DNA of 64,000 nt from Methanobacteriota archaeon (GTDB taxonomy: Archaea > Thermoplasmatota > SW-10-69-26 > JACQPN01): positions 12,350 to 76,349 of the forward strand of contig JACQPN010000002.1 of NCBI GenBank assembly GCA_016207515.1. The letters run 5' to 3'. A program made the position numbers and the translations under genes. This document shows, piece by piece, positions 22,003 through 44,166 of the stretch. Position 1 is the first letter of the stretch; each line of letters opens with the position of its first letter. Below the pieces are notes generated by a model, which was not told the DNA's origin, made no database searches, and was given only the letters and a program-made list of their open reading frames with translations.

Positions 22003-25000
22003 TCACGTCATGTCGTAGTGCGTAGTGCCGGCGCCTTCCGGCGAAACGTAGAACGCCTTGACCACGTTCTGCCCTGCTTGCGGCCGCAGGGGAAGCGTCG
22101 GTGGACTGAGGTTGCTTCCCACTATCCACCCGTTGAGCGAGATCAAGTGCCACCCGGGCAAGTACAGGCCTGCGCCGGCACCGGTATCCACGTCAAAGCC
22201 CACCGTGAACGTCGCGCGGCCGCCAGCGTCGGTCGTAAGGTCGAGTTTCAAGTCGGTGCGGGCCGTGAGCGGTGGCATGCCCGTCTCGACCACCGGGACG
22301 GTCCTGACGGCCCCAGTATAGGATACGTCGAACACGAGCGCCTCGCCTTCGACGGGCACTCCGTCGATGAAGACGACGCTCACGTTGCCCGTGACGGGCT
22401 TCGTGGGGTCGTTGAAACTGTCCGAGCGTCCCTCATCGTACGTCTCGAAGGGCGGCACCGGGACGATGCCGACCGTCGACGCCACGACGCCGACCTCCGC
22501 GTCCTGATCGAGGATTATCGTGTACGTCTTCTGCAAAGCGATCCGCAAGGGGTCCACTTCGACGGAGCGCGTCGCGAGGCCCATTTGGTAGCGCGCGACG
22601 ACGAACGTGCCGCCGGGGTTTATCGTGAGCCTTACTTCCAGCATGTCGTTGGCGCCCCACTCCCCGATGCCGAACGAGGCGTTCGCCCAACCGTCCGCCG
22701 TCACTGCGATCTCCGAATCGCCCGTCGAAAGCGTCGCTCCGGTCGAAAGGTCAACGTAGGCGAGCGCATACACGCTCGAGGTGAGGTTGAACGGCCTATC
22801 GCCGGGCGAGTGCACGAGGCGAAGCTCCACATCAAAGTTCGTCCCGCCGTAGACGCGGATCGTCTTTGAAACGGTCGAGGTCGCCCCACCCGTATCCGTG
22901 ACCCGGAGGCTCACCACGTAACTCGCCGACAGGGTGTAGGCGTGGCTCGGGCTCTGAGCCGTAGAGTTCGACCCGTCGCCGAAGTCCCACAGGTACTGGA
23001 GCGGCAGGTTCTCGGGGTCCGTCGAGGCGTCGATGAACTGGACGGCGACGTTCTCCACGGGTTGGACCGTCGCTACCGTGAAGTCGGCGGTCGGGAGCCC
23101 GTTGGCGACCGATACCGCGTGGACGATGACCGTCGAACCGCCGTCGTTGTCCGTGGCGGTCAGCGTGACATTGTAGGTGCCGATCGCGGAGAACGAGTAG
23201 TTGACGTCCGGCCCCGACGCGGTCCCGTTCGCGTCCCCGAAGTCCCAATCGAGGGTCACGACACTTCCATCGACGTCGAGTGCGGTCGAGTGGAACTCGA
23301 CCACCTGGGCCGCGATGGGAGAACCGGGGTTGAAGTTGAAATCCGCGCTCGGCGGCGCGTTGACCCGTATCGTCGTGTTCGTCGTCGACGAGCCGCCCGA
23401 ATTGTCGGTGACCGACAAGGTGACCGTGAACTGGCCGGCCGACGCAAACGAGTGGTTGACGATCGCGCCGCTGTCCGTCGTCGGCGTGTCGCTGAAGGCC
23501 CAAAGGCGCGCGACGATGCTGCCGTCCGGATCGGTGGAGGTGTCGGTGAAGAAGACCGTCTCGCCGATCTGCGGCACAGTCGGCCCGTACGTGAAGCTCG
23601 CGACCGGTAGCCGGTTTCGCACCGTGATGCTCGCGGAGGCGGAGGCGGACGCGCCCAGGTCGTCGGTCACCGTGAGGGTCACGACGTACACGCCCGGGTT
23701 CACGTAGGCGTGCGTGGTGTTGCGGATCGTGGAGTTGCTGGCGTCCCCGAAGTTCCAAAACCACGATACGATGGTCCCGTCGGGGTCAGAGCCCGTCGCG
23801 TTCATGTAGACGGTCTCGAAGGTGAGGACGTTGGCGGAGTTCGCCGTCCATTGCGCCGACGGCGGCCTGTTCACGGCGACTATCTTCGTCACGGAGCCCG
23901 TCGCACCGTCGTCATCGGTGACCGTGAGTGTGACCGAGTAGGCTCCCGAGCCGGGAAACGTATGGGACGGGTTCGCGTCGGTGCTTGTCGGGAGCGTGTC
24001 ACCGAAGTTCCAGAGATAAGAGACTACGACGCCGTCCGGATCCGAGGCTAGCTCCGTGAAGTTGACAGGTTCGCCGCGCCTTGCGACCGCGGGCGACCAT
24101 GAGAAGTCCGACACGGGGCCCCGGTTGAGGACCTGCAAGTTCACAAGGGCCGTGTTCGAGTAGCCGTCATCGTCGGTCACGGTGAGGCTGACGGTGTAGT
24201 TGCCGGAGTTCGCGTACGAATGCGTGGGGTTCGATGCGGCGGAGCCGTTCCCGTCGCCGAAGTCCCAAAGGAGCGACACGATGACGCCGTCTGCGTCCGT
24301 GGACGTGTCGTTGAACTGGATCGTCTGGCTAGTGAAGGGCACTGTGGGCGTGCGGGTGAAGCTTGCAAGCGGTGCCTGGTTGCCGACGTACATGCGCGTC
24401 TGCGTCGTGTTCGTTGCGCCATCGTCGTCGGTCACCGTGACGCTCACCGTGTAGTTGCCGTCGTCTGCGAACGAGTGGATCGGGGCTTGTACGGCGGACG
24501 TGTTCCCGTCGCCGAAATCCCAGAACCGGGTGACGATCGTCCCATCCATGTCGGTGGACGTATCGGAGAATTGGACCGGGCTCAGGTCGACTGGGAACGG
24601 AGGCGTGAAGGCAAACGACGCGACTGGAGCCCGGTTCAGGATAGTGATGTTCAGGGTCGTGGAATTGGAGAGAAGCGTGTTGTCCGTGTCGGTGAGGGTG
24701 ACTGTGTAGACGCCGTCGTCGACGTACTGGTGTTTGACCGTTATTCCGAGGGTCCCGCTGAGGTCCGTGTGCGTCGCGTGAACGATGGTGACCGGCTCGT
24801 TGTAGGCTGGGTCGTTGGCGCCGGGGTTCTGGAGATTGGCGTTGAGGTGCCCGTCGCCGAAATCGAAGCGGGAAAGGACGATGACGCCGTCGTCGGTGGA
24901 AAGGTCCGTGAACCTGATGTTGGTGAAAGTGTAGACGCCGAAGAACGGGGAGGCCTGGAGGAGCATCGTGGGCGGAGGGAATGATACGCATGTCTGCGGG

Positions 25001-26154
25001 TCGTTCTCGTCCACACAAAGGGGGCCTCCGAGGAGCGTCTGGTTGTGGCCAGCACCGGCACCCTGGGGGGAAACGATCTGGCGCGCGTATCCGTCGAGTG
25101 AGAGCCGCGCTTCGCGGGGGCCCACCTTGAAATAGGTCAGGACGCCGACGAAATCGGACACCGCGAATACGTTGTCCACTTTTCCCCACGATTCATACCA
25201 AACGCTGAGGTCGAAGTTGTTCTCGTCGAAGCTGATCGTGACGTTTCCGGTGGTCTCATTGTTGAACTGTCGCGTTTCCTGCGTCGTCGGCGTGAACTGG
25301 ATAAGCCCGATGGGCTGGTCCATGTAAGTGTAAGAATCGAGCGGCTTGCCATCCACTACGACCGCCGAGACGGGGATGTTCTTCGTGACATCGCCGCCGA
25401 TTGTCCTCTCTGTCTGGAGCCTCGCGAACCCGCCGGGGTTGAGTTCCACACCCGTCACTTTCTGGCTGTCGACGATGACGAAGGCGATCTTCGTGGTCTC
25501 CTCGTCCAAAGCACCCTTCGCGTCGGCCAACGAGTCGAGCGACTGCTTCGCATGTGCCTTGTTGTTCGTCGAGACTTGCTTCAGGTCCGACTCCGCGAAC
25601 ATCGCACTGTGCATGGTCCCGTCGAGATGGAGTTCCGCGCGCGTGGTGCCCGCGTTCGAGACACCATACTTGCCTTCGAAGTGGCGTAGCGTGATCACGT
25701 CCATCGGCGTGAGTTTCAGTTCGCGGTCCCCGACGAAGAGGCGCGCGTTGTCGCCGCTTTTGGTCCCGACCTTGAAGATCAGTTTATCGACTTTGCCCGT
25801 CCCCCAGAAATCGGATTCGATCTTCGCGCCGTTCAATTCCGCGAAAAGCACGGAGACGCCGCCATACGCGTCTCCGCCTGGACCTTGCGCCGTGTAGACG
25901 CGAAGGTCCGTCGGGACGCTCGAGACGTCGATCCCTGTCTCGCCGCCGGCGAACTGCGAGTAGGTGGCGGTGAACTGGGAAAAGAGCAGGCTGCCGATGA
26001 CGACCATGATGGCCAAAAGTTGCTTTATCAGCAAACTGGCCGCCTCCGCCCGTTCCCTCTTTCCAATCCTGCCCGCTCCTTCGACCTGCCGCTTAAGAGT
26101 GCCATGGGGACGGTCGATAGATAACCGGTTCTGCGTCACTCCAGTTGGGAACAA
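22003..26154 (-). CDS. giant cell-surface protein with ~8 tandem PKD domains
   Basis: 1383-aa ORF; ~8 repeats of the PKD signature W[DN]FGDG...H.[YF]...G; N-terminal hydrophobic signal-like segment (true start probably near 26007). Confidence 0.85.
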   Translation of the reverse strand: MFPTGVTQNRLSIDRPHGTLKRQVEGAGRIGKRERAEAASLLIKQLLAIMVVIGSLLFSQFTATYSQFAGGETGIDVSSVPTDLRVYTAQGPGGDAYGGVSVLFAELNGAKIESDFWGTGKVDKLIFKVGTKSGDNARLFVGDRELKLTPMDVITLRHFEGKYGVSNAGTTRAELHLDGTMHSAMFAESDLKQVSTNNKAHAKQSLDSLADAKGALDEETTKIAFVIVDSQKVTGVELNPGGFARLQTERTIGGDVTKNIPVSAVVVDGKPLDSYTYMDQPIGLIQFTPTTQETRQFNNETTGNVTISFDENNFDLSVWYESWGKVDNVFAVSDFVGVLTYFKVGPREARLSLDGYARQIVSPQGAGAGHNQTLLGGPLCVDENDPQTCVSFPPPTMLLQASPFFGVYTFTNIRFTDLSTDDGVIVLSRFDFGDGHLNANLQNPGANDPAYNEPVTIVHATHTDLSGTLGITVKHQYVDDGVYTVTLTDTDNTLLSNSTTLNITILNRAPVASFAFTPPFPVDLSPVQFSDTSTDMDGTIVTRFWDFGDGNTSAVQAPIHSFADDGNYTVSVTVTDDDGATNTTQTRMYVGNQAPLASFTRTPTVPFTSQTIQFNDTSTDADGVIVSLLWDFGDGNGSAASNPTHSYANSGNYTVSLTVTDDDGYSNTALVNLQVLNRGPVSDFSWSPAVARRGEPVNFTELASDPDGVVVSYLWNFGDTLPTSTDANPSHTFPGSGAYSVTLTVTDDDGATGSVTKIVAVNRPPSAQWTANSANVLTFETVYMNATGSDPDGTIVSWFWNFGDASNSTIRNTTHAYVNPGVYVVTLTVTDDLGASASASASITVRNRLPVASFTYGPTVPQIGETVFFTDTSTDPDGSIVARLWAFSDTPTTDSGAIVNHSFASAGQFTVTLSVTDNSGGSSTTNTTIRVNAPPSADFNFNPGSPIAAQVVEFHSTALDVDGSVVTLDWDFGDANGTASGPDVNYSFSAIGTYNVTLTATDNDGGSTVIVHAVSVANGLPTADFTVATVQPVENVAVQFIDASTDPENLPLQYLWDFGDGSNSTAQSPSHAYTLSASYVVSLRVTDTGGATSTVSKTIRVYGGTNFDVELRLVHSPGDRPFNLTSSVYALAYVDLSTGATLSTGDSEIAVTADGWANASFGIGEWGANDMLEVRLTINPGGTFVVARYQMGLATRSVEVDPLRIALQKTYTIILDQDAEVGVVASTVGIVPVPPFETYDEGRSDSFNDPTKPVTGNVSVVFIDGVPVEGEALVFDVSYTGAVRTVPVVETGMPPLTARTDLKLDLTTDAGGRATFTVGFDVDTGAGAGLYLPGWHLISLNGWIVGSNLSPPTLPLRPQAGQNVVKAFYVSPEGAGTTHYDMT

Positions 26155-28892: not shown

Positions 28893-30878
28893 CTACTTCC
28901 CACCGTTCTTGTCCACACTCGGGCCCCCGAGCGATAGCCCGCCCGTCTGCCTGACGTACATGATCTTCGAAAGGCGCGCGGTGCCGCCTGCCGAGCCGTC
29001 CACGTATGCCATGTGGATGAGGCCGTCCTTGTCGGCCTGTATCTGGAAGAAGTCGAGGAGGTTACGTGCGTTTCCGCACGCACTCCCGCGCATGCAGACA
29101 GGCCCGTACTGGATGAGTTCGGGGCTTGCCGCGGATTCGACCCACGTCGCGTCGTCGTCCAACCCGTTCTCGGTGATCGCGAGAATCGTGTACCACTCGC
29201 CGAGCACTTTCTCCGGGTGTCCGACGAAGGCCGTACCATAGAAGGAGAGCGCGACCTTGCCGGCAGCCCCAGCGGTGAGCCACGGGAGAAGGTAGGTCCC
29301 CGGGTTGTTGTTCACTTTCTGCGGCGGCGACCACGTGGCGCCCTTGTCCGACGAGTGGGATATCCAGATGCTCAGGCCGCCGTTCGAATCCGTCTCGTCG
29401 CTCCACGCCGTGTAGACGTTACCGCCCGCGTCGGCCGTTACGACGGTGAAGATGTGGCAGGGGAAGCAAAACGACGTGTTCGTCTCGCCGTTACGCTTCG
29501 CGACGTTATGCCACACGAACGTCTTTCCCATGTCCGTCGACGTCGCAACCCCGGGGCCGTCGTCGTTGCATCCTGCAAGATAGAGCGTGCCGTCGGGGGC
29601 CCGTGCCAGATTGCCTCTGAAACAATCGTCTTCGGGGATGATGGTCCGGCCGGAGAACGTCTTTCCCCCGTCGAAAGAGTGTGTCACCGTCGCTCCGTCG
29701 CGTCCGTTGAAGCCGAGCCACACGTGGTCCGCCCCGTCGACGACGAGCCATTGGCGATCCGCCGAGTAGGGCGCTCCGATCGGGAGGCCGGGCGCGGCGA
29801 CTGGCAGCGCGGGCGGGGAAACGGGGTAGAACGAGGCCGGGTTCGGCTGCGCCGGGTACTGCGCTCCACCGGGGTTCGTGAACCAAGTCTTTCCGCCGTC
29901 GTGGCTTGAGGAAACGGTCTCGCCGCTTCCCCCTTGCTGGTCAGAGAAATAGATGGTGTCCTCGCCGGTGACCGCTACGTCGGAGTCGCCGCCGCCAACC
30001 GTGTATATGCTACCGGGATCGGAGAGCGCGCCCATCTGGTCGCTTCGGACATCGTGGTGGATCTTGATCCGCGTGAAACTCATGCCGCCATCCATCGACT
30101 GCCACAACGATTCTTGGGGACCCGTGGGCGCGGCGACGTAGATCGTGCCCTTGGGGCTCACCGCGATCGAAGGCTCGCCGGTGCGTTTTTCGGCATCGAC
30201 AAGGACCGGCGTCCCGAATTGGAGAGGCGCCTGTGTCCCGACCGGGACGGGAGAGCCCAAGATGGGCAGGGTGACGTTTCGTAGCGTGAGGCGCGCGGCG
30301 AAATCCACGGGGACGGCGTCGCCGATCCGTGAGATGGCGCTCACGCGGAGGCGCCAGTCACGCACTTCGGAACGATCCCCGTAAAGTGTCGCCCAGCATT
30401 CGCCGGCCCGTGCATTCCGGCCGATCGACGGCGCGCCGCACCAGGTCGTCCCGGACTCGTTGAGGACCCGGAAGCCTAGCGTCGCGGCACCGTCCATCCA
30501 CGTGAGGTTTCCTTGGACGATGGTCACGTCCGGGGGAAGGGTGAAGTCGAGGTCGACGTAGTTCAACGGGTCATCCGGTAGCCTTGGTTTCGAAACGCTC
30601 GAAGGGATCGGGACGGGAAGCGGGACCGGGGTCGGCCCAGTGTCCGGCCGCCAGATCGCGGCCGGTGGCGTCACCTTGCCGCTCCAGACGAGTACGACGG
30701 AGTCGCCGACGACCGAGATCTGTGCCCCGACGGCCTCGACGACGGGGGCGAGGTTCACGGGTAGCGACGTGTCCGTGGGCGTCATGGAACTTGTCGGCGA
30801 GACGCAGCCCGCGAGGCTCACGCCAAGAAGCGGCAAAACGATCGCAAGCGTGGACAGTCCCCGGACGTTCTTCCCCAT
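28893..30878 (-). CDS. secreted lipoprotein with BNR/Asp-box repeats (sialidase-like beta-propeller)
   Basis: Signal peptide plus lipobox (LAGC); four Asp-boxes (SHDGGKTW, SFDGGKTF, STDMGKTF, SSDKGATW); start at ATG 30878. Confidence 0.8.
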   Translation of the reverse strand: MGKNVRGLSTLAIVLPLLGVSLAGCVSPTSSMTPTDTSLPVNLAPVVEAVGAQISVVGDSVVLVWSGKVTPPAAIWRPDTGPTPVPLPVPIPSSVSKPRLPDDPLNYVDLDFTLPPDVTIVQGNLTWMDGAATLGFRVLNESGTTWCGAPSIGRNARAGECWATLYGDRSEVRDWRLRVSAISRIGDAVPVDFAARLTLRNVTLPILGSPVPVGTQAPLQFGTPVLVDAEKRTGEPSIAVSPKGTIYVAAPTGPQESLWQSMDGGMSFTRIKIHHDVRSDQMGALSDPGSIYTVGGGDSDVAVTGEDTIYFSDQQGGSGETVSSSHDGGKTWFTNPGGAQYPAQPNPASFYPVSPPALPVAAPGLPIGAPYSADRQWLVVDGADHVWLGFNGRDGATVTHSFDGGKTFSGRTIIPEDDCFRGNLARAPDGTLYLAGCNDDGPGVATSTDMGKTFVWHNVAKRNGETNTSFCFPCHIFTVVTADAGGNVYTAWSDETDSNGGLSIWISHSSDKGATWSPPQKVNNNPGTYLLPWLTAGAAGKVALSFYGTAFVGHPEKVLGEWYTILAITENGLDDDATWVESAASPELIQYGPVCMRGSACGNARNLLDFFQIQADKDGLIHMAYVDGSAGGTARLSKIMYVRQTGGLSLGGPSVDKNGGK

Positions 30879-31040
30879 GGTACGCCTCTTCAAGAGAAGA
30901 GCCGTTGGAGCCTTATCATTGTTCATGTATGAGGGTTGGTCAATCGAAGGCAAGAAAGGGCCTGGGCGCAGAGAATCCGTTGCTGTGACGTGATCCTCTG
31001 GCAATCGGGGCGTGCTCTACCCGACGATCTCCGGCCTTCT

Positions 31041-32645: not shown

Positions 32646-33494
32646 GTGAACCAAATGACCGACCGCGTTCTCTTCGCCGTAGCGGCAATGGCCATCGTCC
32701 TTTCGGGCACCGTGAGCGCCGGCACCGAAAAGGCGCCCGAGCTCGTGGACGCTGCCATGGACACGGCCCGGCCCGACGAATCGCAATCCACGGACATCAT
32801 CGCGGGCTGGATCGAGAAGGAGGAAGAGGCGTCGTTCACGACCGTCATCAAGGTCCAGACGCTCGACTTGAACCTCGCGGCTGTGACCGGTTTCTCATTC
32901 GCGTTCAAGTACCGCGGCCTCGACTACGCGACGTCGGCCTTCCTCATCCCGGGCTCGCCCCCCGACTTCTCCTACGGTCACTGGGACGAGGATGCGGGCT
33001 TCACCTACGATTCGAACGCGACCACAGGCACGGTCACCGCCGGGTCCCCCGGCTACGTACGCGTCGTGTTCAAGAAGGACCACTTCACGTCGGAGCCCCA
33101 CGGCAACGCCGCTGCGGTCGCCTACAAGGACCCGCCGACCATCGAGAAGATCGCGGTGACGACGATCGACGGCAAGGCCTTCACGCCTCTCATCCTGCTC
33201 TTCCTCGTGAACGTCGACCCCTTTAGCGTCGCGCCGGCCCTTAGCTCGCCTCCGCCGGCGCTTTACAATTCAGACTCCGCCACCGCCACGAAGAACTACG
33301 TGATGACGCTCGGGGTCCCCGACGCGCCCGTCGTCGAGCCCTTGCTGGCCATCGAGCCGTTGAACGCGTCTGGCCATACCGAGCCGCTCTCCGATGATGC
33401 GACGGCGCCGCCGGTCGCCAATACGCCGGGCCCAGAGGCCTGGATGCTCGCGGCGGCGCTATCGGCGGCCATTGTCATAAGGCGTCGCCGGTAG
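32646..33494 (+). CDS. secreted protein with C-terminal membrane anchor (PGF-CTERM-like sorting signal)
   Basis: N-terminal signal peptide; C-terminus TPGPEAWMLAAALSAAIVIRRRR (Pro-Gly motif, hydrophobic helix, Arg cluster). Confidence 0.6.
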   Translation: MNQMTDRVLFAVAAMAIVLSGTVSAGTEKAPELVDAAMDTARPDESQSTDIIAGWIEKEEEASFTTVIKVQTLDLNLAAVTGFSFAFKYRGLDYATSAFLIPGSPPDFSYGHWDEDAGFTYDSNATTGTVTAGSPGYVRVVFKKDHFTSEPHGNAAAVAYKDPPTIEKIAVTTIDGKAFTPLILLFLVNVDPFSVAPALSSPPPALYNSDSATATKNYVMTLGVPDAPVVEPLLAIEPLNASGHTEPLSDDATAPPVANTPGPEAWMLAAALSAAIVIRRRR

Positions 33495-34209: not shown

Positions 34210-34635
34210 TCATGCCTGTTTCTTGCGACCCTTGGTCGGACTGAACGAGATGACCTTGATGCCGAGCTTTCTTGCGGCCTGCAACTGCCTGTCATCAGCG
34301 GAGACAAGGGTTCCTCCGGTGGAGACGGCTGCCTCTAGGTACTCCGCGTCGTAGTACGTCACGCCGGTGGCGGCATCCCAGACGCGATCGTCGTCGGTGT
34401 TCAACGGAATCAGGTCGATTCCGAGGAAGACGGCGCGGTGAAGCTCCTTGGCCTCGGCGACCTTCAGGTCGCGACACTCTTTCTGTATGACCCGTCCGAG
34501 CTCGCTGTATGCGATGTGTGGAGCTTGAAGCGCCATGCCTTTCGCCGAGGTTTCGCTAAGCCAGGCCCGAAACTCCTCCGATCCCGCCTCATCGAGGAAC
34601 GATTTTGCCAAAGCGCTGGCATCCAAGACGAACAT
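34210..34635 (-). CDS. vapC: PIN-domain toxin VapC
   Basis: ORF 34210..34707; start MFVLDASALAKSFLDE (PIN acidic residues D5, E/D ~40, D ~100). Confidence 0.8.
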   Translation of the reverse strand: MFVLDASALAKSFLDEAGSEEFRAWLSETSAKGMALQAPHIAYSELGRVIQKECRDLKVAEAKELHRAVFLGIDLIPLNTDDDRVWDAATGVTYYDAEYLEAAVSTGGTLVSADDRQLQAARKLGIKVISFSPTKGRKKQA

Positions 34636-34636
34636 C

Positions 34637-34846
34637 CTAGTGCTCCTCGCGAGCTTCCCGTACGACGTCAGCCACGGGACGACTTGCGGGCCGCCGGTAC
34701 TTCGCAAGGGTGGCGTTGCGACGATCGATTCGGAGTCTTTCTGCGAGCTTCGTGAGGTCCTCCTTCACGGTCTCGGCGATCTTGACTCCCGCCTCGTCGA
34801 GCTCGTGCTGTAGCGCATCTGGAATACGCACGCTGATTACACCCAT
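34637..34846 (-). CDS. vapB: ribbon-helix-helix antitoxin VapB (CopG-like)
   Basis: 69 aa, MGVISVRIPDALQHELDE...; stop 1 nt from vapC start. Confidence 0.75.
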   Translation of the reverse strand: MGVISVRIPDALQHELDEAGVKIAETVKEDLTKLAERLRIDRRNATLAKYRRPASRPVADVVREAREEH

Positions 34847-35005
34847 GTGTTTACATGGTTGTAAGACAAGATAAAGTTTACTGCTGGTTCTTACGGCCCA
34901 GGAGGGAAGTTGGTTGCACGGCGTGGGCGCCTTCGCGACCGACGTGCGAACCCGCCGACACCGCCGGTTAGTTATTTATACTTCGTCAGCGCACGTATAC
35001 ATTGT

Positions 35006-35209
35006 ATGCCAGAAGACACGATGCTTCGCGTCCCAGTGGCGGTTCGCGAGCGCCTGCGACGCTACGGCGTGAAGGGCCAGACGTACGCCAACATCCTGAC
35101 GAACCTGATGGACGAGTTTGACCATCGAGAGTTCGTGAAGGAACAAATCGCTTTGTTGGATGAGGCGATCGAGGAGAAGCCGCGCCTAGTTAACCTTCGA
35201 GACCTCTGA
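35006..35209 (+). CDS. antitoxin (RelB/ParD-like) of RelE module
   Basis: ORF 34910..35209, start placed at ATG 35006 (MPEDTMLRVPVAVRERLRRYG...); stop overlaps the toxin start (ATGA). Confidence 0.6.
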   Translation: MPEDTMLRVPVAVRERLRRYGVKGQTYANILTNLMDEFDHREFVKEQIALLDEAIEEKPRLVNLRDL

Positions 35210-35475
35210 TGCCTTACCGGGTGATCCTCGGGCGGCGCGCCGAAAAGAACCTTCGCGCGCTACGTGCCGATGAACGGGCGCGAGTCAAGGACGCTCTCCT
35301 CGTGCTGGAGGAAGACCCGATCCACCCCAGGCCCGGGGCGGACATCAAGCGGCTCAAGGGCACAAGACGCCTCTACCGCGTGCGCGTAGGCCCGTGGAGA
35401 GCCATCTATGGCATTCACGATGGCGACGTAATTATCACGGACTTCTTCAGGAAGAAGCGCGGATACGACATCTGA
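35209..35475 (+). CDS. relE: RelE/ParE-family toxin
   Basis: 88 aa; YRVRVGPWRAIYGIHDGDVIITDFFRKKRGY matches the RelE core. Confidence 0.8.
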   Translation: MPYRVILGRRAEKNLRALRADERARVKDALLVLEEDPIHPRPGADIKRLKGTRRLYRVRVGPWRAIYGIHDGDVIITDFFRKKRGYDI

Positions 35476-35617: not shown

Positions 35618-36847
35618 ATGGATCGTTCCAGCGGCCGCGTCCAAGTCGGCCTCGCGTTCCTCATCGTGTTCGTCGCGGGCTGCCTCGGCCCGCCGCCGAC
35701 GGGCGATGACGACGACGATGGACGGGACGAAGACCCTTCAACGGACCGACCGGGCGTGGGCGACAACGACGCTTCCGAGCATTTTGCGTCCGATGATGAC
35801 GGGTCTAACGAGGAGGGCGGCGACGACGACCCCGACGCCGCGTTCGAACGCGTCGAATGGAACCGCCGCATCAATGCGTCGTTTGCTCCGGTCGACTGCC
35901 CGAGGCCGCCCCGGCGCGAGTACAATGACACGTACTACAAGGGCCCGCTCATCGACACGCACATGCACATCCCGCACCTTCCCGATTCCCCGATCGGCGA
36001 GCCCGTGCCCGACGAGAAGATGCACCCCATCGCCGGTGTCAACGTCCGCATGGGCGAGATCGCGTGCCTCCTCAAGTGGGAGGGGACCAAGAGCGCCGTA
36101 TCGTTCTTCCCGGTATTCCCTCACATCGACTGGCAATCCCTCGAAGTCGTGAACCGGACGATGTCGCTCTATCCCGACCTCTTCATCCCGTTCATCATGG
36201 CGCCAGCCGCGAACGACGACCCACCGACCGTTGACGAGGGGCCACTTCGCGGAATGCTTGAGGTACATCCAGGGCTCTTCCGCGGCTATGGGGAAATCGG
36301 TCTCTACTCCCGCTCCGAAGGCGGACGCGACTTGAGGCCGGACGACCCCATCCTCAAACGCGTCTATCTCGTCCTCCGCGAACACAAGCTCGTCGCCTAC
36401 CTCCATCCCGGCGACGGCCACGCAGCCTCACTCGACGCGGTCCTCACGGAGAACCCGGACCTCAACCTCATCGTCCACGGAGACCAGATCGCGCCCGCTA
36501 TCGGCGCGTTGATGGACGCACACGACAACGTGTTCTTCACCGCGAACGACCTCTACGGCGACCAGTACCTGCTTCACCAGCGCGAGAACGCGACGACGTT
36601 CCTCGAAAAGACGAAGGACTTCGGCCCAATGCTTAGAAAGGATTGGGACGACTGGAAAGCGATCATCGAAGCGCATCCCGACCAGTTCATGTGGGGCACG
36701 GATCGGGGCGGCGTCGCGGTGTGGACGTACGACCACGCGGTCGGCGACCGGCTCTCGGATTACGGGCGCGCTTTCATCGGAGGACTCGATCCGGCCGTGC
36801 AGGAGAGGTTCGCTTTCAAGAACGCCGAGAGGCTGTTTTCGCGGTAG
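35618..36847 (+). CDS. secreted lipoprotein, amidohydrolase-superfamily (TIM-barrel metal-dependent hydrolase) domain
   Basis: Signal peptide plus lipobox (FVAGC), acidic low-complexity linker, then metal-binding His motifs (DTHMHIPH, HPGDGH, IVHGDQ). Confidence 0.7.
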   Translation: MDRSSGRVQVGLAFLIVFVAGCLGPPPTGDDDDDGRDEDPSTDRPGVGDNDASEHFASDDDGSNEEGGDDDPDAAFERVEWNRRINASFAPVDCPRPPRREYNDTYYKGPLIDTHMHIPHLPDSPIGEPVPDEKMHPIAGVNVRMGEIACLLKWEGTKSAVSFFPVFPHIDWQSLEVVNRTMSLYPDLFIPFIMAPAANDDPPTVDEGPLRGMLEVHPGLFRGYGEIGLYSRSEGGRDLRPDDPILKRVYLVLREHKLVAYLHPGDGHAASLDAVLTENPDLNLIVHGDQIAPAIGALMDAHDNVFFTANDLYGDQYLLHQRENATTFLEKTKDFGPMLRKDWDDWKAIIEAHPDQFMWGTDRGGVAVWTYDHAVGDRLSDYGRAFIGGLDPAVQERFAFKNAERLFSR

Positions 36848-37038: not shown

Positions 37039-38187
37039 TTGAATTTGGACCTCGCCTGGAACCCGCTCGGCGCCATCGGCATCGTGGTGGGCGTCCTCGC
37101 TTGCGCCATGGCGGCGCTCGTGTGGAAGGCGCGGGCCGACCGGGCCCAAAACCGCTGGCTCGCGGCCTACCTCTTCGGCAACGGCTTGTACTTCGTCGCC
37201 TACAACGGCCTCCGACTCTTCGCGACCGATCCCCGTGACGCCTACGCGCTCATGGCCTCAGGTTGGTCGGTGAATCTGCTGTCCGTCGGAGGATACTTTG
37301 CCTTCCTCTCTACGTTGGATTCCCCTCTCGTCTCTTGGATGCGAAGGTACCGGATCGTGTGGGCCGTGATGGGCGGCTCTGCCCTGGTCGCGGCATATGT
37401 CGTCGTCCAGCCGGGTGCTTGGTTCCCGGGCGTGCAGCCACTCGGTGGTTTTTCGGGATGGGGCGCAGTCTCCTCCCCGCTTAGAAACCTCGTCCTCCTG
37501 GTCCTCACGGGCCTCTTTATCTTTTCCGCAGCGCCGGCGATCGACGCTTGGCGCCGAGCGAAGACGCCGCTCCTACGTCGCCAAGGTTGGATCTTTGGCG
37601 CCACGTTCGCGACGACATCGCTCGGTTGGGCGGCCTTCATAATATGGTACCTGGCCTCGGGAACGGGCACATTCACGCCGTTTGTCGTGGTCGTCAATTT
37701 CCTGTGGCAGGCCCTGCTTTCGCTTGCCCTCTCCCTTGGCCTTGCGTACGGGATCCTGAAGACCCAACTTTTCGACGTCGACATCAAGCTCAAGTGGACG
37801 TTGCGAAGCGGCACGCTCGCGGGCGCCTTCTTGGGCGTTTTCTTCGTGGCAAGCGAGGCAGCGCAATCGGTACTCTCCGCACAACTCGGTCCCATTGTCG
37901 GGCTCGTCGCAACGGGTGCTCTCGTGTTCGCGTTGGCACCGCTCCAGCGCGCCGCGGACAGGATCGCGGACAAGGCCATGCCGCGCGTTTCGGACGACGC
38001 CGAGTACAGGACGGTGAGAAAGCGCGAGGTGTACGCCGCGGCCGTCGAGAGTGCTCTCGAAGAGGGCGACATACGCCCGAAGGAGCGCGGGATGCTCGCG
38101 ACACTTGCGGACCAGCTTGGGCTAGGTCCGAAGGAGATGCACGAGATCGAGGTTGAGGCGCGTTCGGAAAGAGCGCGGGTGGCGTAG
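37039..38187 (+). CDS. array member A: polytopic membrane protein (~9 TM) with conserved C-terminal module
   Basis: 382 aa, TTG start; seven N-terminal TM helices, then conserved TM hairpin (FFVASEAAQ...ALVFALAPL) and cytoplasmic helical tail. Confidence 0.75.
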   Translation: MNLDLAWNPLGAIGIVVGVLACAMAALVWKARADRAQNRWLAAYLFGNGLYFVAYNGLRLFATDPRDAYALMASGWSVNLLSVGGYFAFLSTLDSPLVSWMRRYRIVWAVMGGSALVAAYVVVQPGAWFPGVQPLGGFSGWGAVSSPLRNLVLLVLTGLFIFSAAPAIDAWRRAKTPLLRRQGWIFGATFATTSLGWAAFIIWYLASGTGTFTPFVVVVNFLWQALLSLALSLGLAYGILKTQLFDVDIKLKWTLRSGTLAGAFLGVFFVASEAAQSVLSAQLGPIVGLVATGALVFALAPLQRAADRIADKAMPRVSDDAEYRTVRKREVYAAAVESALEEGDIRPKERGMLATLADQLGLGPKEMHEIEVEARSERARVA

Positions 38188-38316
38188 ATGCCCCTCTCGC
38201 CGGGTTTCCTCGTCACGCAGGCGACTACCCTCCTTCTCGTCGTGCTGGGCGCGTTCGTCCTGACCGTGCGACCGCGCACGCGTGCGCCGGCTTTCCCGGT
38301 CACGGAGGCGGCCTGA
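38188..38316 (+). CDS. array fragment B1: 42-aa ORF carrying only the family N-terminal TM motif
   Basis: ATG immediately after A stop; LLLVVLGAFVLTVRPRTRAP matches the N-terminal LG...L[RK]PRT motif of C-G; likely gene remnant or split gene. Confidence 0.35.
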   Translation: MPLSPGFLVTQATTLLLVVLGAFVLTVRPRTRAPAFPVTEAA

Positions 38317-38832
38317 GTGCACTTGCTCGACGCCGTGGGGCTCACCGACTCCGTTTCGGTGCTAGTGTTCACTCTCCTGGGCCTTTGGGTCCTTTCGCTT
38401 CGCTGGCGTTCGGCCACGAACATCACGTTCGCCGTCTGCGCGATCGCTTTCTCGGCGGGCATAGTCCCGGTCAATCTTTTCACCGCCCGGACTCACTTGG
38501 ATCCCCCCATATCCGCCGCCGCGGACGTCGTCGCGAAGCGCGCCGTCTCGATCACGCGCGACGGCGATCCCGTCCCGTGCCCCATCCCGACGCTGCCTTG
38601 CGACGCAGCGCCGCGCGGCGCGCCGATCCTGCCCGACGACACCCGATACTCGCTCGTCATCGGCGACTACGTCGCGCTCGGCGGCGACGGATACGACAGG
38701 CTCCCCGACCTCGGTGCGAGCGGCGCGCTCGAAGCGGACGTGCTCATTGAGCACCTCGAGCGCCTCGGCACGGTCGAGCCGCGCGTCGACGGCCGCGTGT
38801 GGCACGTCGCGCGACTTCAGGGGGTGCCCTGA
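38317..38832 (+). pseudogene. array fragment B2: family-like N-terminal TM segment fused in frame to a 5'-nucleotidase C-terminal-domain-like tail
   Basis: GTG after B1 stop; N-terminal TM (LVFTLLGLWVLSLRWRS), C-terminal YSLVIGDYVALGGDGYDRL...VDGRVWHV resembles the 5'-nucleotidase C-terminal domain; no conserved family C-terminal module. Confidence 0.35.
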
Positions 38833-40073
38833 TGCACTTGCTGGGCGAGGCCTGGTTCTCGTGGGTCTCCTTCGTGGTCGCCGATGTGATCCTCGTTGCG
38901 CTCGGCATTCTCGTGCTCCGGCTCAAGCCGCGGACGCCGGCGAGCTGGGCTCTTGGCGTCTTCGCGACCGCCTGGGGAGCCAACTTCATCGTGGCGCTCG
39001 CGCCGTTCTTCTTCGACATCGACCTTTCGAGGCCAGGGTATCTGGAGGGTCAAACCCTTCTTCGCGTCGTCCTGAGAGCCATCTCCGCCGGCGGCCTCGT
39101 GGCGATGATGCTGACCTTCCCGCGGGCCCTGCCGCGAGCCGAGCGCCGCGCCCTCGTCGGGCCCGCGATCTTTGGCGCGGTCTGGGCGTTTGTGCTCATC
39201 GCCCCGCGATGGGCGATCCCACCGTGGGCGCTCCTCGACGTGGGAACCGCGATTGTCGGGTACGGGTTCGTCTGGGCGTACCTGCTGCTTCTCACGTCCC
39301 GGTGGCGGCGCGCGACCGACGCGGGCGAACGGCACCAGATCGTGCTCACGTTCGTGGCGCTCGCGCTGGGCGTCAGTTTCCAAGCGGGACAATACGCGGG
39401 AGGCGCGAGCCAGCTCGCTTCGTCAGGCGTCCTGACGTTCGTGACCCAGCTTGCCCCACCCGTCTGGCTTGCGGTCGTCTGGCTCCGGGGGGCCCACGGG
39501 GCGCAAGCGCGCGTCGAGCGGAATCTCGCCATCCTCCCGCTCGCGCTCGCGTTCGTGGGATTCCTCGTGGGGAGGAGGAGCCCCTACGATCCCTCGGGCC
39601 TCCTCGCCCTTGGCACCGTCGCGATCCTCACCTATGCGATCGTGCGTCACCAAGTCCTCGGCATCGACGTCAAGCTCCGCTTCGCCATCAGCAAGTCCAC
39701 GGTCGCGGCCGTGTTCATCGCGGTTTTCTTCGTCGCGAGCGAAGCGGCGCAGCAGTTCTTCGGCGAAGCGTTCCAATCCAATTACGTGGGCATCCTGGCG
39801 GCGGGTGCTCTCGTGTTCGCGATCGCGCCGTTGTCGCGCCTCGCGGACCGGATCGCGGAGAAGGCGGTGCCGGTTCCCACGGCACCTCCGGAGCCCACGG
39901 GGCTACCTTTTCGCGAAAAGCTCTACCGGGATGCAGCGCGCTACGCGCTCCGAGACGGCACGATGACACGCATCGAGGAGTTGCATCTTGCCCAGCTTGC
40001 CGCCGAGCTCGGGCTGCGCGCGGATCGGGCGGTCGAACTGCGCCATGAGATCGAGGAGGAGATGAGGGCGTGA
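38832..40073 (+). CDS. array member C: polytopic membrane protein with conserved C-terminal module
   Basis: ATG overlapping B2 stop (ATGA); module ISKSTVAAVFIAVFFVASEAAQQFFGEAFQSNYVGILAAGALVFAIAPLSRLADRIAEKAVP plus tail YRDAARYALRDGTMTRIEELHLAQLAAELGL. Confidence 0.8.
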   Translation: MHLLGEAWFSWVSFVVADVILVALGILVLRLKPRTPASWALGVFATAWGANFIVALAPFFFDIDLSRPGYLEGQTLLRVVLRAISAGGLVAMMLTFPRALPRAERRALVGPAIFGAVWAFVLIAPRWAIPPWALLDVGTAIVGYGFVWAYLLLLTSRWRRATDAGERHQIVLTFVALALGVSFQAGQYAGGASQLASSGVLTFVTQLAPPVWLAVVWLRGAHGAQARVERNLAILPLALAFVGFLVGRRSPYDPSGLLALGTVAILTYAIVRHQVLGIDVKLRFAISKSTVAAVFIAVFFVASEAAQQFFGEAFQSNYVGILAAGALVFAIAPLSRLADRIAEKAVPVPTAPPEPTGLPFREKLYRDAARYALRDGTMTRIEELHLAQLAAELGLRADRAVELRHEIEEEMRA

Positions 40074-41356
40074 TCGTTTTCCACACGGAGTGGGACGCGA
40101 TCGTGAACGCGATTACGGCCGCGATCCTCGCGGGGTTCGGAGCCTGGATCTGGGCGCTTCGGCCGCGGACCCGACTCACCCGTATGCTCGCGCTCTTTGC
40201 CGTCGCGCACGGCGTTCTCTACACGTACATCAACTTGGTCGAGGTCCTCCCTGTGGGAGGCCCCGCTTGGATCGCGGATACGCTCCTCCGGGGCGCGCTC
40301 TTCGGGGCCGCCGCGTGGGGTCTGCTCGCGATGGGACGCGAAGTCCTGCGGCCTCTCGGCCCCGGGAGCGATCGTCTCTGGAAGGTCGCCGTCGCGACCG
40401 TCGGGATTCTCGCGGTCGTAATCACGGGCCCGGTGCTTTTTGGCCTCCCCGATTCCTCCCCTCTCGCCTGGGTCGCGATCGCCGCCGAGCTTTTCGGCCT
40501 CGCAACGTTCATTCTCGGATTCACCGCCCTTCCGGTCGTGTTTGTGTGGCTCTACCGGCAGCCCCTCGGGGAGGACGTTGAGCGGACGAGGCGCAACGCC
40601 ATCGTGATGAGCAACGCGCTCGTCCTCTGGCCGGCGCTCTATGGGATTGAGGCCGCGATCGGGGGCGGTATCGGCGGATACCTAGTTCTCATCGGTGTGG
40701 TCGCGCTCGGGCTCCTCTGGCTGGCCAACATCGGAGTCGATCCCCGGACAGCCCGCGAGGCTCGCGACGCGGCGCTTCTCGCCTTCGCCCTGCTCCTCAT
40801 CGGAACCGTCGACAGACTGATCCTCTCCGACGCGCTCGGCTACTCTCGCGCAGAGGGCCCGTTCTATGGAATCGCGCGCCTCCTGACGGTCGTCGCGCTC
40901 TCCTACGCCGTCCTGAAGCACTCCGTGCTCGGCTTCGACGTGAACCTACGCTTTGCAATCAGCAAGTCCACCATCGCCGCCGTCTTCGTCGCCGTCTTCT
41001 TCGTCGCGAGCGAAGCGGCGCAGCAGTTCTTCGGTGAAGCGTTCCAGTCGAGCTACGTGGGCATCCTGACGGCGGGTGCGCTCGTGTTCGCGATCGCGCC
41101 GTTGTCGCGGCTTGCGGACAGGATCGCTGAGAAGGCGGTGCCGATCGCGGAGGGCCGTCCCGCCGCCACGACGGCGAAGGAGGAAGCGTACAAACGCGCG
41201 TTGCGCATCGCGCTGCGGGACCGCAAGCTCACGCGCGAGGAGGACATCCACGTGCACGAGCTCGCGGAGCACCTCGGCATCGGCGCAGGCCGAGCGATGG
41301 CATTGCGTGTAGAGATTGAACGCGAATTGGCCGCATCGACCGGAGGCGGGACTTGA
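40070..41356 (+). CDS. array member D: polytopic membrane protein with conserved C-terminal module
   Basis: GTG overlapping C stop (GTGA); C-terminal module nearly identical to C and E2 at protein and DNA level. Confidence 0.8.
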   Translation: MIVFHTEWDAIVNAITAAILAGFGAWIWALRPRTRLTRMLALFAVAHGVLYTYINLVEVLPVGGPAWIADTLLRGALFGAAAWGLLAMGREVLRPLGPGSDRLWKVAVATVGILAVVITGPVLFGLPDSSPLAWVAIAAELFGLATFILGFTALPVVFVWLYRQPLGEDVERTRRNAIVMSNALVLWPALYGIEAAIGGGIGGYLVLIGVVALGLLWLANIGVDPRTAREARDAALLAFALLLIGTVDRLILSDALGYSRAEGPFYGIARLLTVVALSYAVLKHSVLGFDVNLRFAISKSTIAAVFVAVFFVASEAAQQFFGEAFQSSYVGILTAGALVFAIAPLSRLADRIAEKAVPIAEGRPAATTAKEEAYKRALRIALRDRKLTREEDIHVHELAEHLGIGAGRAMALRVEIERELAASTGGGT

Positions 41357-41595
41357 CGATTCCGCTCGGCCGGATCCTCAACCTCGCCGGGAGCTCGGTG
41401 ATTGTGCTGCTCGGGCTCGCCGTCGCATTCCTTGGCCGAGGACGAGGTCCAGACCTTGGAGTGACTCGGTTCTCCATCGGCATCGGCGGGCTCGCTCTCG
41501 CGAAGCGCCACATGCGCGACCTTGTGGCCACCTGGGCGGGAGAGGACGCAACTGGTCGCGAAGCGGCGCCCGACTTGGAGGCGCGGTCCCCGTGA
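41353..41595 (+). CDS. array fragment E1: 80-aa ORF with family N-terminal TM motif
   Basis: TTG overlapping D stop; LAGSSVIVLLGLAVAFLGRGRG matches the family N-terminus; ends at TGA overlapping the GTG of E2. Confidence 0.4.
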   Translation: MTIPLGRILNLAGSSVIVLLGLAVAFLGRGRGPDLGVTRFSIGIGGLALAKRHMRDLVATWAGEDATGREAAPDLEARSP

Positions 41596-42932
41596 ATCTG
41601 CTCTCCGGGGCCCTCGTGCCCGCCTACGCCGGGACCCTCACAAACCTGCTCCTCGCTGCGGCTCTCCTCAGGTGGGGCCCAAGGCGGGGGGCATCGGTCT
41701 GGTTCGTCGCTTTCCTGGTCGCGGACGGCGTTGGCCTGGCGCTCAACGCAATCGAGAACCACGTCTTCCAGACCTTCGACGCCACCACGTCGAGCGCGTC
41801 AGAGATCGAAGCGACACGGGCGCTACTCACGGGGCTCGATGTCGCCGTGGGCGTTCTGCTCGTCTCTGCCCTGTTCCTGATCGTTTTCGCAACGATCGAA
41901 TTCTTGGGGCGCGCCCCGCGATGGCTGGCACCGGCGGTCCTCGCGACCGCGAGCACGGCGGCGCTCTGGGGGATTCTCGACCCTCCCGCAGGATACTTCC
42001 TCCGCGAGGGCCGCCTCATACACGTCGTCGACTCCTCCTATTTCTTCCTCACAACGCTTCCTGCCTTCGCAAGCCAAGGCGTCGCGCTTCTCGTGCTCGC
42101 GCGGCGACCAGCCGGCGATCCCAGCTCACCCACGCGCCGCTCTCACCTCCTCCTTGGCATCGGTCTCCTCGTGTATCCTCTTCATCGTGGCGCCTATCTT
42201 GTGGTGGACTACTTCCTCGACCCGCTGTCTGTAGCGCGAGTAACTGCCTCCAATCGGTTCGTCCTGCTCGGCGAGCTGGCGACCGCCGTGTTCCTCCTCT
42301 TCGCCGCCTACCTTGCCATCATGCGGCTTGCACGCACACATCCCGAGCACGCGGGCCTCGTTCTCGCGGCCGGCGTGGGCCTCGGCTCCGGGATACTGCG
42401 TGCCCTGACGGATGCGCTCCCGTCCTACTTCTATTTCGGCGTCGCGAACCTCGTGCTGCCGCTCGTCGCTACGTACGCGCTGCTCCGGCACAACCTGTTC
42501 GGTCTCGATTTCAGGGTTCGGTGGGCGATCTCGAAGTCCACGATCGCGGCGGTCTTCATCGCCGTCTTCTTTGTGGCGAGCGAGGCGGCGCAGCAGTTCT
42601 TCGGCGAAGCGTTCCAATCCAATTACGTTGGCATCCTGGCGGCGGGTGCTCTTGTGTTCGCGATCGCACCGTTGTCGCGGCTTGCGGACCGGCTCGCTGA
42701 GAAGGCGGTGCCGGTGGCCGCCGGAACCGGGCCCGTCGAGGCGAGCGCGTCCGACACGCGCGGAGCCGACGCGTACCGACACGCGGTGCGCTTGGCGCTT
42801 CGCGACCGGCGCCTCACGCCCGGTGAAGAGGTCGCTTTGGCGCACGTCGCGCAGGGTCTCGGACTCACGCCTGTTGAGGCCATTCGGCTCCGCCACGAGG
42901 TCGAGGCGGAGACCGGGAAGGAGGTGCGCTAA
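41592..42932 (+). CDS. array member E2: polytopic membrane protein with conserved C-terminal module
   Basis: In-frame part of ORF 41316..42932 starting at GTG 41592; C-terminal module identical over long stretches to C and D. Confidence 0.75.
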   Translation: MNLLSGALVPAYAGTLTNLLLAAALLRWGPRRGASVWFVAFLVADGVGLALNAIENHVFQTFDATTSSASEIEATRALLTGLDVAVGVLLVSALFLIVFATIEFLGRAPRWLAPAVLATASTAALWGILDPPAGYFLREGRLIHVVDSSYFFLTTLPAFASQGVALLVLARRPAGDPSSPTRRSHLLLGIGLLVYPLHRGAYLVVDYFLDPLSVARVTASNRFVLLGELATAVFLLFAAYLAIMRLARTHPEHAGLVLAAGVGLGSGILRALTDALPSYFYFGVANLVLPLVATYALLRHNLFGLDFRVRWAISKSTIAAVFIAVFFVASEAAQQFFGEAFQSNYVGILAAGALVFAIAPLSRLADRLAEKAVPVAAGTGPVEASASDTRGADAYRHAVRLALRDRRLTPGEEVALAHVAQGLGLTPVEAIRLRHEVEAETGKEVR

Positions 42933-42990
42933 ACTGGCTCTCGACGCGCGGTTCGTAATCACCGCAGGAAGCGGCGCGCTATGGGGCCTC

Positions 42991-44166
42991 ATGGGTGTCG
43001 TGATCCTCGCACTCGGCAGGAGCCGACGGGAGAACGTGGCGCTGGGGGCCCTCGCCCTATCGTTTGGTGCGATGTTCGTGTCGAACAACCTCGCCTTCGA
43101 GCCCGGAGCTGACGCGCTCCCAGTCATGTGGGGCTCGGCCCTCTTGGCCGTTGTCGCCGGTCTCGCCGCCCTCGCCGTGGCATGGACGACAGAGGGCCTC
43201 CCACGCGCGCCGGTCGTCGTCGCGGGAGCCGTCGGGGCCGCTTGGCAGCTCCTCGTGCCGATGGGACCCGTGTACGCGGCGGTGAACGCGGCGCGCTTCC
43301 CGCAGCCCGTGGCGGCGGCGTTCTTCACGAACGTCGCGTCTCCGCTTTTCGTCATCGCGTTGGCGCTCCTCATCGGGCTCCTTGCCGCCTTCGCCCTCGC
43401 CCCGAGGAGACTCGCGATGGGTGATCCGCGCCGTCCGCCGCGAAGGCTTCTGATGTACGCGTTCGGCCTCTACCTCGCGTACTCGATGGGCGCCAACGTG
43501 GTCGCGTACGACTTGAGCGGCTATGTCGTACTCTTCCCACTCGTCGTCGCACTTGCGGTGGCGCTGCTCGTCGCTGGCGCCGCGCCGGGCGGGCTGCCCG
43601 AACGTGACGGGGCGCTCGTCATCCTCGCGGCGGGCCTCGCCGGCGCGATCTCCGAGACCTGGGGAGGGGCGACCACGTCGGGCCTTGGCGTCGGCATCCT
43701 CCGCATCGTCGGCGTTGCGGTCCTTGCGTACTCCGTGTTCCGCTACGACCTCCTCGGCGTGCCGCTCCCGCGTATCGCCGAACACCGCGGCAGCCTTGCG
43801 ATGGCCTCGCTGGCCTCGCTCTTCATCGTCGCGCAGATCGCGGAGAACTACCTCAGCGCGGAGTACGGCCTCTTGATGGGTGGCGTGGTGGCGGGCGCGC
43901 TCCTCTTCGCCGCGAACCCCATACAACGGGCGATGGAGAGGACGACCGCTCCGGTCGGGCCCCATCGTGCTCCGGCGACGGTCGAGCGCCGCGAGGAGAG
44001 CGAGCGTGCCTACAGGGTGGCGTTACGCCGCTTCCTCGTTGACGGGGATATCAGCGCGGAGGAGGAGATCGCCTTGGCCCACCTTGCGGATGAGGCGGGC
44101 GTGACGGTGCGGCGAACAATCGAACTCCGCCACGAGGTCGAGCGCGAGTTGGGGAGGCGGGGCTGA
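42991..44166 (+). CDS. array member F: polytopic membrane protein with conserved C-terminal module (start uncertain)
   Basis: First in-frame ATG after E2 stop is 42991; homology to G begins at CTG 42934 (LALDARFVITAGSGALWGL vs VLDLSAASLVRAGSGVLFL), so the start may be non-canonical or lost. Confidence 0.7.
   Translation: MGVVILALGRSRRENVALGALALSFGAMFVSNNLAFEPGADALPVMWGSALLAVVAGLAALAVAWTTEGLPRAPVVVAGAVGAAWQLLVPMGPVYAAVNAARFPQPVAAAFFTNVASPLFVIALALLIGLLAAFALAPRRLAMGDPRRPPRRLLMYAFGLYLAYSMGANVVAYDLSGYVVLFPLVVALAVALLVAGAAPGGLPERDGALVILAAGLAGAISETWGGATTSGLGVGILRIVGVAVLAYSVFRYDLLGVPLPRIAEHRGSLAMASLASLFIVAQIAENYLSAEYGLLMGGVVAGALLFAANPIQRAMERTTAPVGPHRAPATVERREESERAYRVALRRFLVDGDISAEEEIALAHLADEAGVTVRRTIELRHEVERELGRRG

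Follow-up and report, generated by a model that had tools for sequence, protein, structure and literature searches.

C-terminal sorting signals determine which archaeal surface proteins receive covalent lipid anchors, with the annotation of such signals depending almost wholly on short HMMs for which haloarchaea and methanogens supplied the training sequences. The closest described system is that of PGF-CTERM and ArtA (TIGR04126, PF18204), exemplified by the S-layer glycoprotein of Haloferax volcanii, in which the helix at the C-terminus is cut off by ArtA and a lipid attached, with 1–52 PGF substrates per ArtA-encoding genome (PMC6098224). The PGF-CTERM architecture comprises a glycosylatable stalk and a motif followed, spacer-free, by a short helix and an Arg cluster, with Thr/Ser/Pro-rich stalks also found upstream of comparable signals, and characterises signals whose sorting enzymes cleave from deep within the membrane (bioRxiv 10.1101/2023.06.07.544157). 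The only motif mutation reported, PGF to PFG in Haloferax, blocks ArtA processing (PMC6098224), and the motif is thus not freely mutable. Sorting signals and their enzymes co-evolve by lineage (Haft, bioRxiv 10.1101/2023.06.07.544157), and the generic PGF-CTERM HMM overlooks lineage-specific forms (PMC9723798).

Heimdall-CTERM (NF045529) and Loki-CTERM (NF033507) are likewise short archaeal PGF-like signals which need models of their own lineage. The CGP-CTERM signal of the Thermococcales, associated with the archaeomyxosortase MrtA, is also archaeal and very short, with an invariant Gly-Pro adjoining the helix and basic residues thereafter; it requires in addition an invariant Cys ahead of this Gly-Pro, and its partner is a protease of the CPBP family. 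An invariant Cys is present in all Cys-type signals (bioRxiv 10.1101/2023.06.07.544157). Permanent archaeal TM anchors, such as that of Sulfolobus SlaB (cited in PMC6098224), combine a secreted ectodomain on a stalk with a helix and basic residues at the C-terminus, but have neither a conserved signature residue nor a fixed helix length. Our literature search on PGP-CTERM, Heimdall-CTERM, and Loki-CTERM returned nothing relevant.

The protein HY556_00725, encoded within the 64-kb window analysed here (the whole stretch of 64,000 nucleotides of DNA; Table 1), resembles PGF-CTERM proteins in its secretion signal, its tripartite end, and its Thr/Ser/Pro-rich stalk with sequons, with true PGF found at the same position in homologues and paralogues, and one TPGP-bearing family member scoring above the model cut-off. 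Unlike PGF-CTERM, Pro replaces Phe in HY556_00725 and in 18 of 34 aligned family members, Thr-Pro rather than Gly-Phe is the most conserved element, the tail reaches 6.4 bits against the 24.5 bits of the cut-off, and the family belongs to soil and groundwater Thermoplasmatota rather than to haloarchaea or methanogens, with no enzyme located in ~89 kb of the genome. Canonical-PGF members of the family score on the Heimdall-CTERM and Loki-CTERM models (homologue P0020 at 21.7 bits as a whole protein and 24.6 bits as a tail, cut-off 24), whereas the native HY556_00725 tail is unmatched, with the artificial P263F tail alone producing matches, below cut-off. The Gly-Pro adjoining the helix, the shortness and the basic end are shared with CGP-CTERM, however HY556_00725 has no Cys and no match to that model. 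The stalked ectodomain, terminal helix and basic end are features it has in common with the permanent anchors.

The product of the ORF is identical to the NCBI protein HY556_00725, assigned to a MAG of a "Euryarchaeota archaeon", and its C-terminus reads ...VANTPGPEAWMLAAALSAAIVIRRRR*. The codon-position GC of 0.60/0.49/0.87 matches that of the window's other real genes, and, among all stop-to-stop ORFs of 80 aa or more in the six frames of the 64 kb, a hydrophobic run of at least 13 residues with a basic end was found in this ORF only.

Table 1. Positions of HY556_00725, its parts, and other features, numbered within the window except in the last row, which refers to loci of two other MAGs.
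Feature	Position	Strand	Details and basis
Whole ORF including stop (HY556_00725)	32646..33494	+	GTG start, 282 aa; NCBI start ATG 32655, 279 aa
Sec-type signal peptide, residues 1–25	32646..32720	+	Predicted cleavage VSA↓GTE; sequence, junction conservation, modelled helix 3–20
Mature ectodomain, residues 26–222	32721..33311	+	Beta-sandwich, motif G-T-x-x-A-P-E-L-x-D at N-terminus; AlphaFold, conservation
Disordered Pro/Ala/Thr/Ser/acidic stalk, residues 223–258	33312..33419	+	Sequon N240-A-S; pLDDT 58–77, without secondary structure
Signature motif N259-T260-P261-G262-P263	33420..33434	+	Family consensus [DN]-T-P-[GA]-[PF]; 34-sequence alignment
Hydrophobic helix E264–I278	33435..33479	+	Spacer-free after motif; modelled helix 263–281
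Arg cluster R279–R282 and stop codon	33480..33494	+	Sequence
HicB-like antitoxin	2979-3221		
1383-aa ORF	22003-26154	-	One N-terminal hydrophobic segment, GC3 0.84; ends ..GAGTTHYDMT, no C-terminal anchor
Lipobox-like exported proteins (..SLAGC, ..VAGC, ..FAGC)	28893-31004, 35618-36847, 46294-47199	-, +, -	
PIN-domain ORF	34210-34707	-	Small partner at 34637-34846 (-)
ParE-like pair	34910-35209 / 35209-35475	+	Toxin-antitoxin genes downstream of HY556_00725
Six multi-TM paralogues in tandem (array)	37039-45417	+	
Array members	37039-38187, 38799-40073, 40070-41356, ~41600-42932, ~42930-44166, 44167-45417	+	Six paralogues
Additional 171-aa 2-TM ORF in array region	38317-38832	+	
CcdA/DsbD-like transporter genes	L009 16263-17144; L010 11843-12103	+	Motif FFSPCGFPMLPAYV

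A sequence-only reading of this DNA had described a secreted protein with an N-terminal signal peptide and a tripartite tail, consisting of a Pro-Gly motif, a hydrophobic helix and an Arg cluster, in which PGP stands in place of PGF. The 282-aa translation, the signal peptide and the conserved tail confirm both the ORF and the tail as described. The N-terminus of HY556_00725, MNQMTDR-VLFAVAAMAIVL-SGTVSA↓GTE, contains the n, h, and c regions of a standard Sec signal peptide, with the A25/G26 junction kept in at least 90% of the 34 homologues in the form ..A↓G(T/S). The tripartite tail is read directly from the sequence and its geometry is kept in the 34 homologues, with Pro263 of HY556_00725 occupying the Phe position.

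The AlphaFold model of HY556_00725, built with the family alignment, has a mean pLDDT of 86, with residues 31–150 at 90–98, and places helices at residues 3–20 and 263–281, a beta-sandwich at about residues 50–215, and a disordered stalk at residues 225–260. Comparison of the model with the PDB using Foldseek gave weak matches throughout, namely to 4jpq (E 1e-2, probability 0.97), a putative carbohydrate-binding protein, to NxrC, and to the cytochrome domain in cellobiose dehydrogenase; on these matches, the ectodomain may tentatively be assigned a DOMON/CBM9-like ligand-binding fold. The most conserved stretch of the family is the mature N-terminus directly after the signal-peptidase site (window positions 32721-32770, residues 26–42), with the consensus G(T/S)-x-x-x-P-E-(L/I/V)-x-D-x-x-G-D, in which P31, E32, D35, and D39 are conserved in at least 90% of members. 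Conservation of so acidic an N-terminus suggests that a metal or ligand is bound there, or that the protein is processed a second time.

A word-indexed search found a single close relative, P0002, with 56% identity to HY556_00725, which retains the order of TPGP, hydrophobic segment, and RRRRR, the stalk preceding it having diverged. When 1.84 billion cluster representatives were searched with a profile, 41 family matches emerged, 19 of them at E < 1e-10, with each representative standing for a cluster at 50% identity and the tail statistics given here drawn from an alignment of 34. Searching for loci with a subfamily alignment located four genome loci and five short metagenome loci, and a homologue search with the broad family alignment gave three matches only, with low-complexity words dominating. 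The named homologues are from "Thermoplasmatota archaeon" MAGs, and nearly all members are 215–290 aa in length, sharing a common plan of signal peptide (..SA↓G(T/S)), conserved mature N-terminus, beta-rich domain, variable Ala/Pro/Thr/Ser/acidic stalk, and C-terminal tail. The core domain has no Pfam match in any of the 34 members, nor an NCBIfam model.

In two other Thermoplasmatota MAGs (loci L009 and L010), a CcdA/DsbD-like membrane thiol-disulfide transporter with the motif FFSPCGFPMLPAYV lies 1–6 kb downstream of the family gene. In the subfamily to which these loci belong, one Cys is nearly invariant (GDC...GNEY) and another fully so (..CD..), suggesting an extracytoplasmic disulfide; HY556_00725 has no Cys.

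The tail of HY556_00725 can be written as NTPGP-EAWMLAAALSAAIVI-RRRR, with the motif, the abutting hydrophobic helix and the Arg-rich cluster following in this order at the extreme C-terminus; the C-terminal peptide ends ...TPGPEAWMLAAALSAAIVIRRRR, and the tail segment reads ...NTPGPEAWMLAAALSAAIVIRRRR. Across the family the stalk is composed of 20% Ala, 13% Pro, 11% Thr, and 9% Ser, with an N-x-S/T sequon within the 30 residues upstream of the motif in 24 of 34 members, and the stalk of HY556_00725 is probably glycosylated. Within the tail, P261 is one of just three invariant columns (together with W55 and D210) among the 34 homologues, which share 21–57% identity, despite the hypervariable stalk that precedes it. 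The residue before this Pro is Thr in 22/34, the residue after it is Gly in 15/34 and Ala in 7/34, with T, W, F, L, and M among the others, and the next residue is Pro in 18/34 and Phe in 7/34, with Ala and Val also occurring. The distance from the invariant Pro to the first basic residue (Arg) is 17–19 residues in 28/34, and to the C-terminus 21–24 residues in 25/34. With an invariant Pro, a conserved Thr, and a fixed spacing maintained despite 21–34% identity, the tail appears to be a constrained signal rather than a mere anchor.

Canonical PGF occupies the aligned position in five homologues, namely P0020 and P0027 (TPGFE), P0025 (IPGFG), and P0028 and P0041 (IPGFD), which are among the seven members with Phe at the second position after the invariant Pro. 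The MAG with the locus-tag prefix HY556 encodes at least two paralogues of HY556_00725, HY556_05590 (P0020), with a TPGFE tail (..RNTPGFEVAVALVATSAAFAFRRRK), and HY556_10800 (P0048), with a TPMPA tail (..AKTPMPALFVPVAILLGALALRRRT). On the same contig as HY556_05590 lies HY556_05545, an unrelated 1404-aa cupredoxin-domain protein, the tail of which consists of IPGFE, a hydrophobic segment, and RRSKKD, ending IPGFEPLAFIGAAALVAIASRRSKKD, given also as ..KSPIPGFEPLAFIGAAALVAIASRRSKKD. This IPGFE tail is called by no curated model, and a homologue search with HY556_05545 recovered only the protein itself. The TPxP form was observed in the HY556_00725 family only, the unrelated HY556_05545 having PGF. 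As a side observation, HY556_10800 and HY556_05590 (loci L004 and L005) also adjoin PIN/VapB genes, whether by coincidence or otherwise.

Comparison with curated sorting-signal models employed cut-offs of 24.5 bits for PGF_CTERM (TIGR04126), 20 for MYXO-CTERM (TIGR03901), 24 for Heimdall-CTERM, and 19.9 for Loki-CTERM. Full-length HY556_00725 gives no match to TIGR04126, nor any to Pfam, including PF18204 (PGF-CTERM), and in the 6.4-bit match of its isolated tail only the helix is aligned, at model positions 14–28. Within the family, TIGR04126 is matched by 4 of 34 members and the Pfam PGF-CTERM model by two, with the TPGP-bearing P0022 passing the TIGR04126 cut-off at 26.5 bits, and P0020 (21.7–22.9 bits) and P0027 (19.4 bits) falling below it. 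Changing the second Pro to Phe in silico gains ~12 bits on TIGR04126, raising the P0002 tail from 14.2 to 26.3 bits, and thus above the cut-off, and the P0022 tail from 31.5 to 43.6 bits. The same change (P263F) raises the HY556_00725 tail to 12.4 bits, still under the cut-off, and brings it to 21.2 bits on Heimdall-CTERM and 18.3 bits on Loki-CTERM, both sub-threshold, with the native tail giving no match to either model. HY556_00725 has the tripartite architecture and the N-terminal signal peptide of PGF-CTERM proteins, but lacks the Pro-Gly-Phe signature and, because it scores 6.4 bits natively and 12.4 bits with Phe, falls outside formal PGF-CTERM membership. The family tails are nonetheless PGF-CTERM-like in sequence, with Phe mostly replaced by Pro.

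The best curated match of HY556_00725 is to MYXO-CTERM, at 13.5 bits for the full length and 17.0 bits for the tail, with the alignment starting at model position 10–11 and thus limited to the helix and Arg region of a Cys-less tail. No match to CGP-CTERM (TIGR04288) was found up to an E-value of 10, and Thr-Pro-Gly-Pro contains no Cys. The identities MYXO-CTERM, CGP-CTERM, and GlyGly-CTERM were rejected, the tail having no Cys and scores being sub-threshold or absent.

Neither the 64-kb window nor ~25 kb from two other contigs, together ~89 kb of this genome, yielded an exosortase/archaeosortase (PF09721) gene. The multi-TM ORFs of the window, including the 37–45 kb array, showed no archaeosortase, exosortase, CPBP, or rhomboid when searched against NCBIfam and Pfam, and PF09721 is absent near six homologues in other genomes, including the Pfam-annotated surroundings of P0022, P0042, P0025, P0028, and P0049. 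Multi-TM ORFs adjoining homologues in other genomes were considered as archaeosortase candidates; they proved instead to encode a DMT transporter and a CcdA-like protein, or to be artefacts on the antisense strand. The six-paralogue array was likewise rejected as a candidate, with no match to an exosortase or archaeosortase model and no invariant Cys, His or Ser in its membrane part.

The neighbours of HY556_00725 are unrelated housekeeping and mobile genes with no apparent operon logic, purF lying divergently upstream and a glyoxalase-fold gene downstream, with VapBC-like and ParE-like toxin-antitoxin pairs, a lipobox protein, and the multi-TM paralogue array farther on. The thermosome gene of the window has the Thermoplasma acidophilum alpha subunit as its top match among PDB chaperonins. 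The N-terminal parts of the array proteins have 6–7 TM segments and are divergent (29–42% identity). Their C-terminal ~170 aa pair two TM segments ("FFVASEAAQQFFGEAFQS..GALVFAIAPLSRLADRIAEKAVP") with a helical, soluble tail ("..LAxLAxxLGL..RxEIExE"), and this part is nearly identical as protein in three copies, its DNA being just 78–82% identical. The array matches no Pfam or NCBIfam family save for a weak TerB match on one tail, and has no PDB sequence match; GC in this region is raised to 0.67–0.68, AT skew is strongly negative, and the AlphaFold model of the paralogues is poor (pLDDT 59). The array looks like an uncharacterised family in which variable membrane "sensor" parts are mounted on a constant module.

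Secreted proteins from other parts of the window and from adjoining loci bear N-terminal lipoboxes rather than C-terminal signals, so that the organism appears to employ both N-terminal and C-terminal routes of lipid anchoring. One of these, a 703-aa lipobox protein, contains repeated S/D-x-D-G-G-K-T-W motifs and is BNR/sialidase-like by eye. The 1383-aa ORF of the window is probably a large surface protein.

The reading we favour, at a probability of about 0.6, is that HY556_00725 is a Sec-exported beta-sandwich surface protein carrying a diverged PGF-CTERM-type signal, which is cut by an archaeosortase-A-type enzyme and leaves the protein lipid-anchored, with the tail representing a putative family-specific F-to-P variant of PGF-CTERM. 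The protein would be exported by Sec and its signal peptide cut after VSA, leaving a ~200-aa beta-sandwich ectodomain borne by a flexible Pro/Ala/Thr stalk that is probably glycosylated. Its final 24 residues would be a diverged homologue of PGF-CTERM with Pro for the canonical Phe. If the ArtA substrates of Haloferax are a guide, the helix and Arg cluster of this tail may hold the C-terminus in the membrane only for a time, until an intramembrane cysteine protease of the archaeosortase A type cleaves at TPGP or close to it, with removal of the helix and attachment of a membrane lipid. We infer from this analogy that the HY556 genome encodes an archaeosortase, that the enzyme accepts Pro for Phe, and that cleavage and lipidation follow. 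The sequence-only reading had likewise proposed a PGF-CTERM-type archaeosortase substrate. This proposal is supported in part: the PGF homologues, the score of P0022 above the cut-off, the P-to-F gain of P0002, and the PGF-type tails of the same MAG favour a diverged form of this signal, whereas HY556_00725 itself scores below the curated model's cut-off. That reading had suggested a search for further proteins with such a tail, and the genome has them in HY556_05590, HY556_10800, and HY556_05545, with the TPxP form on paralogues only.

A less probable explanation, and the main rival, is that the tail derives from PGF-CTERM but has lost its Phe and remains uncleaved, making HY556_00725 a type I protein with a plain, permanent C-terminal TM anchor and a cytoplasmic Arg cluster, in keeping with the positive-inside rule. 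The lack of a match to the curated PGF-CTERM model, the absence of an archaeosortase from the available ~89 kb, the loss of processing when PGF becomes PFG in Haloferax (PMC6098224), and the variation within the family at the first (G/A/T/W/F/L/M) and second (P/F/A/V) positions after the invariant Pro are all consistent with such an anchor. A permanent anchor leaves unexplained, however, the invariant Pro, the conserved Thr before it and the 17–19-residue distance from Pro to Arg at 21–34% identity, whilst a permanent helix would be expected to be longer than the hydrophobic run of ~14–15 residues, and P0022, with its TPGP, still scores above the PGF-CTERM cut-off.

Recognition of the tail by another intramembrane protease, either a rhomboid (compare GlyGly-CTERM) or a CPBP/Rce1-like myxosortase (compare CGP-CTERM and MYXO-CTERM), is improbable. 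Whilst MYXO-CTERM is the best curated match, though below threshold, and the Gly-Pro after the key residue resembles that of Thermococcales CGP-CTERM, the MYXO-CTERM alignment is limited to the helix and Arg region, and no CPBP or rhomboid gene was found when the window's multi-TM ORFs were searched. Both the Cys-dependent (MYXO/CGP) and the rhomboid-type systems are made unlikely by the absence of the invariant Cys of Cys-type signals from the HY556_00725 tail and from the family, and by the homologues alternating with PGF, never with Cys or GlyGly motifs. Spurious Ala/Arg-rich ORFs are common in GC-rich DNA, and the end of this ORF could in principle be a chance hydrophobic, Arg-rich artefact and no real feature, however the probability of this is negligible, with the 41 representative homologues, the conservation of the tail among them, and the confident AlphaFold model (pLDDT 86) refuting it, and the GC3 of 0.87 also standing against it.

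The favoured reading, a diverged PGF-CTERM-type signal, admits a more speculative extension, which we think rather unlikely, in which soil and groundwater Thermoplasmatota would possess a "TPxP-CTERM" signal of their own ([DN]-T-P-[GA]-P, ~15 hydrophobic residues, and RRR), read by a co-evolved archaeosortase subfamily with specificity for Thr-Pro rather than Gly-Phe. Such a signal would constitute a lineage-specific system akin to Loki-CTERM and Heimdall-CTERM, outside all curated models, and would serve mainly one unannotated beta-sandwich surface family with three or more copies in each genome.

The value of these findings lies in a refined recognition rule and refined annotation models for archaeosortase substrates, and in the flagging of an unannotated Thermoplasmatota family, and the gain is incremental. 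A whole Thermoplasmatota surface family (41 clusters at 50% identity) appears to bear a PGF-CTERM-derived tail, usually with Pro for the "defining" Phe, with current models missing the Pro-type tail, in which Thr-Pro is the conserved part. If the variant is processed, the accepted recognition rule of archaeosortase A would be relaxed and a lineage-specific model would be warranted; if it is unprocessed, the family would offer a natural case in which a sorting signal has degenerated to no more than an anchor.
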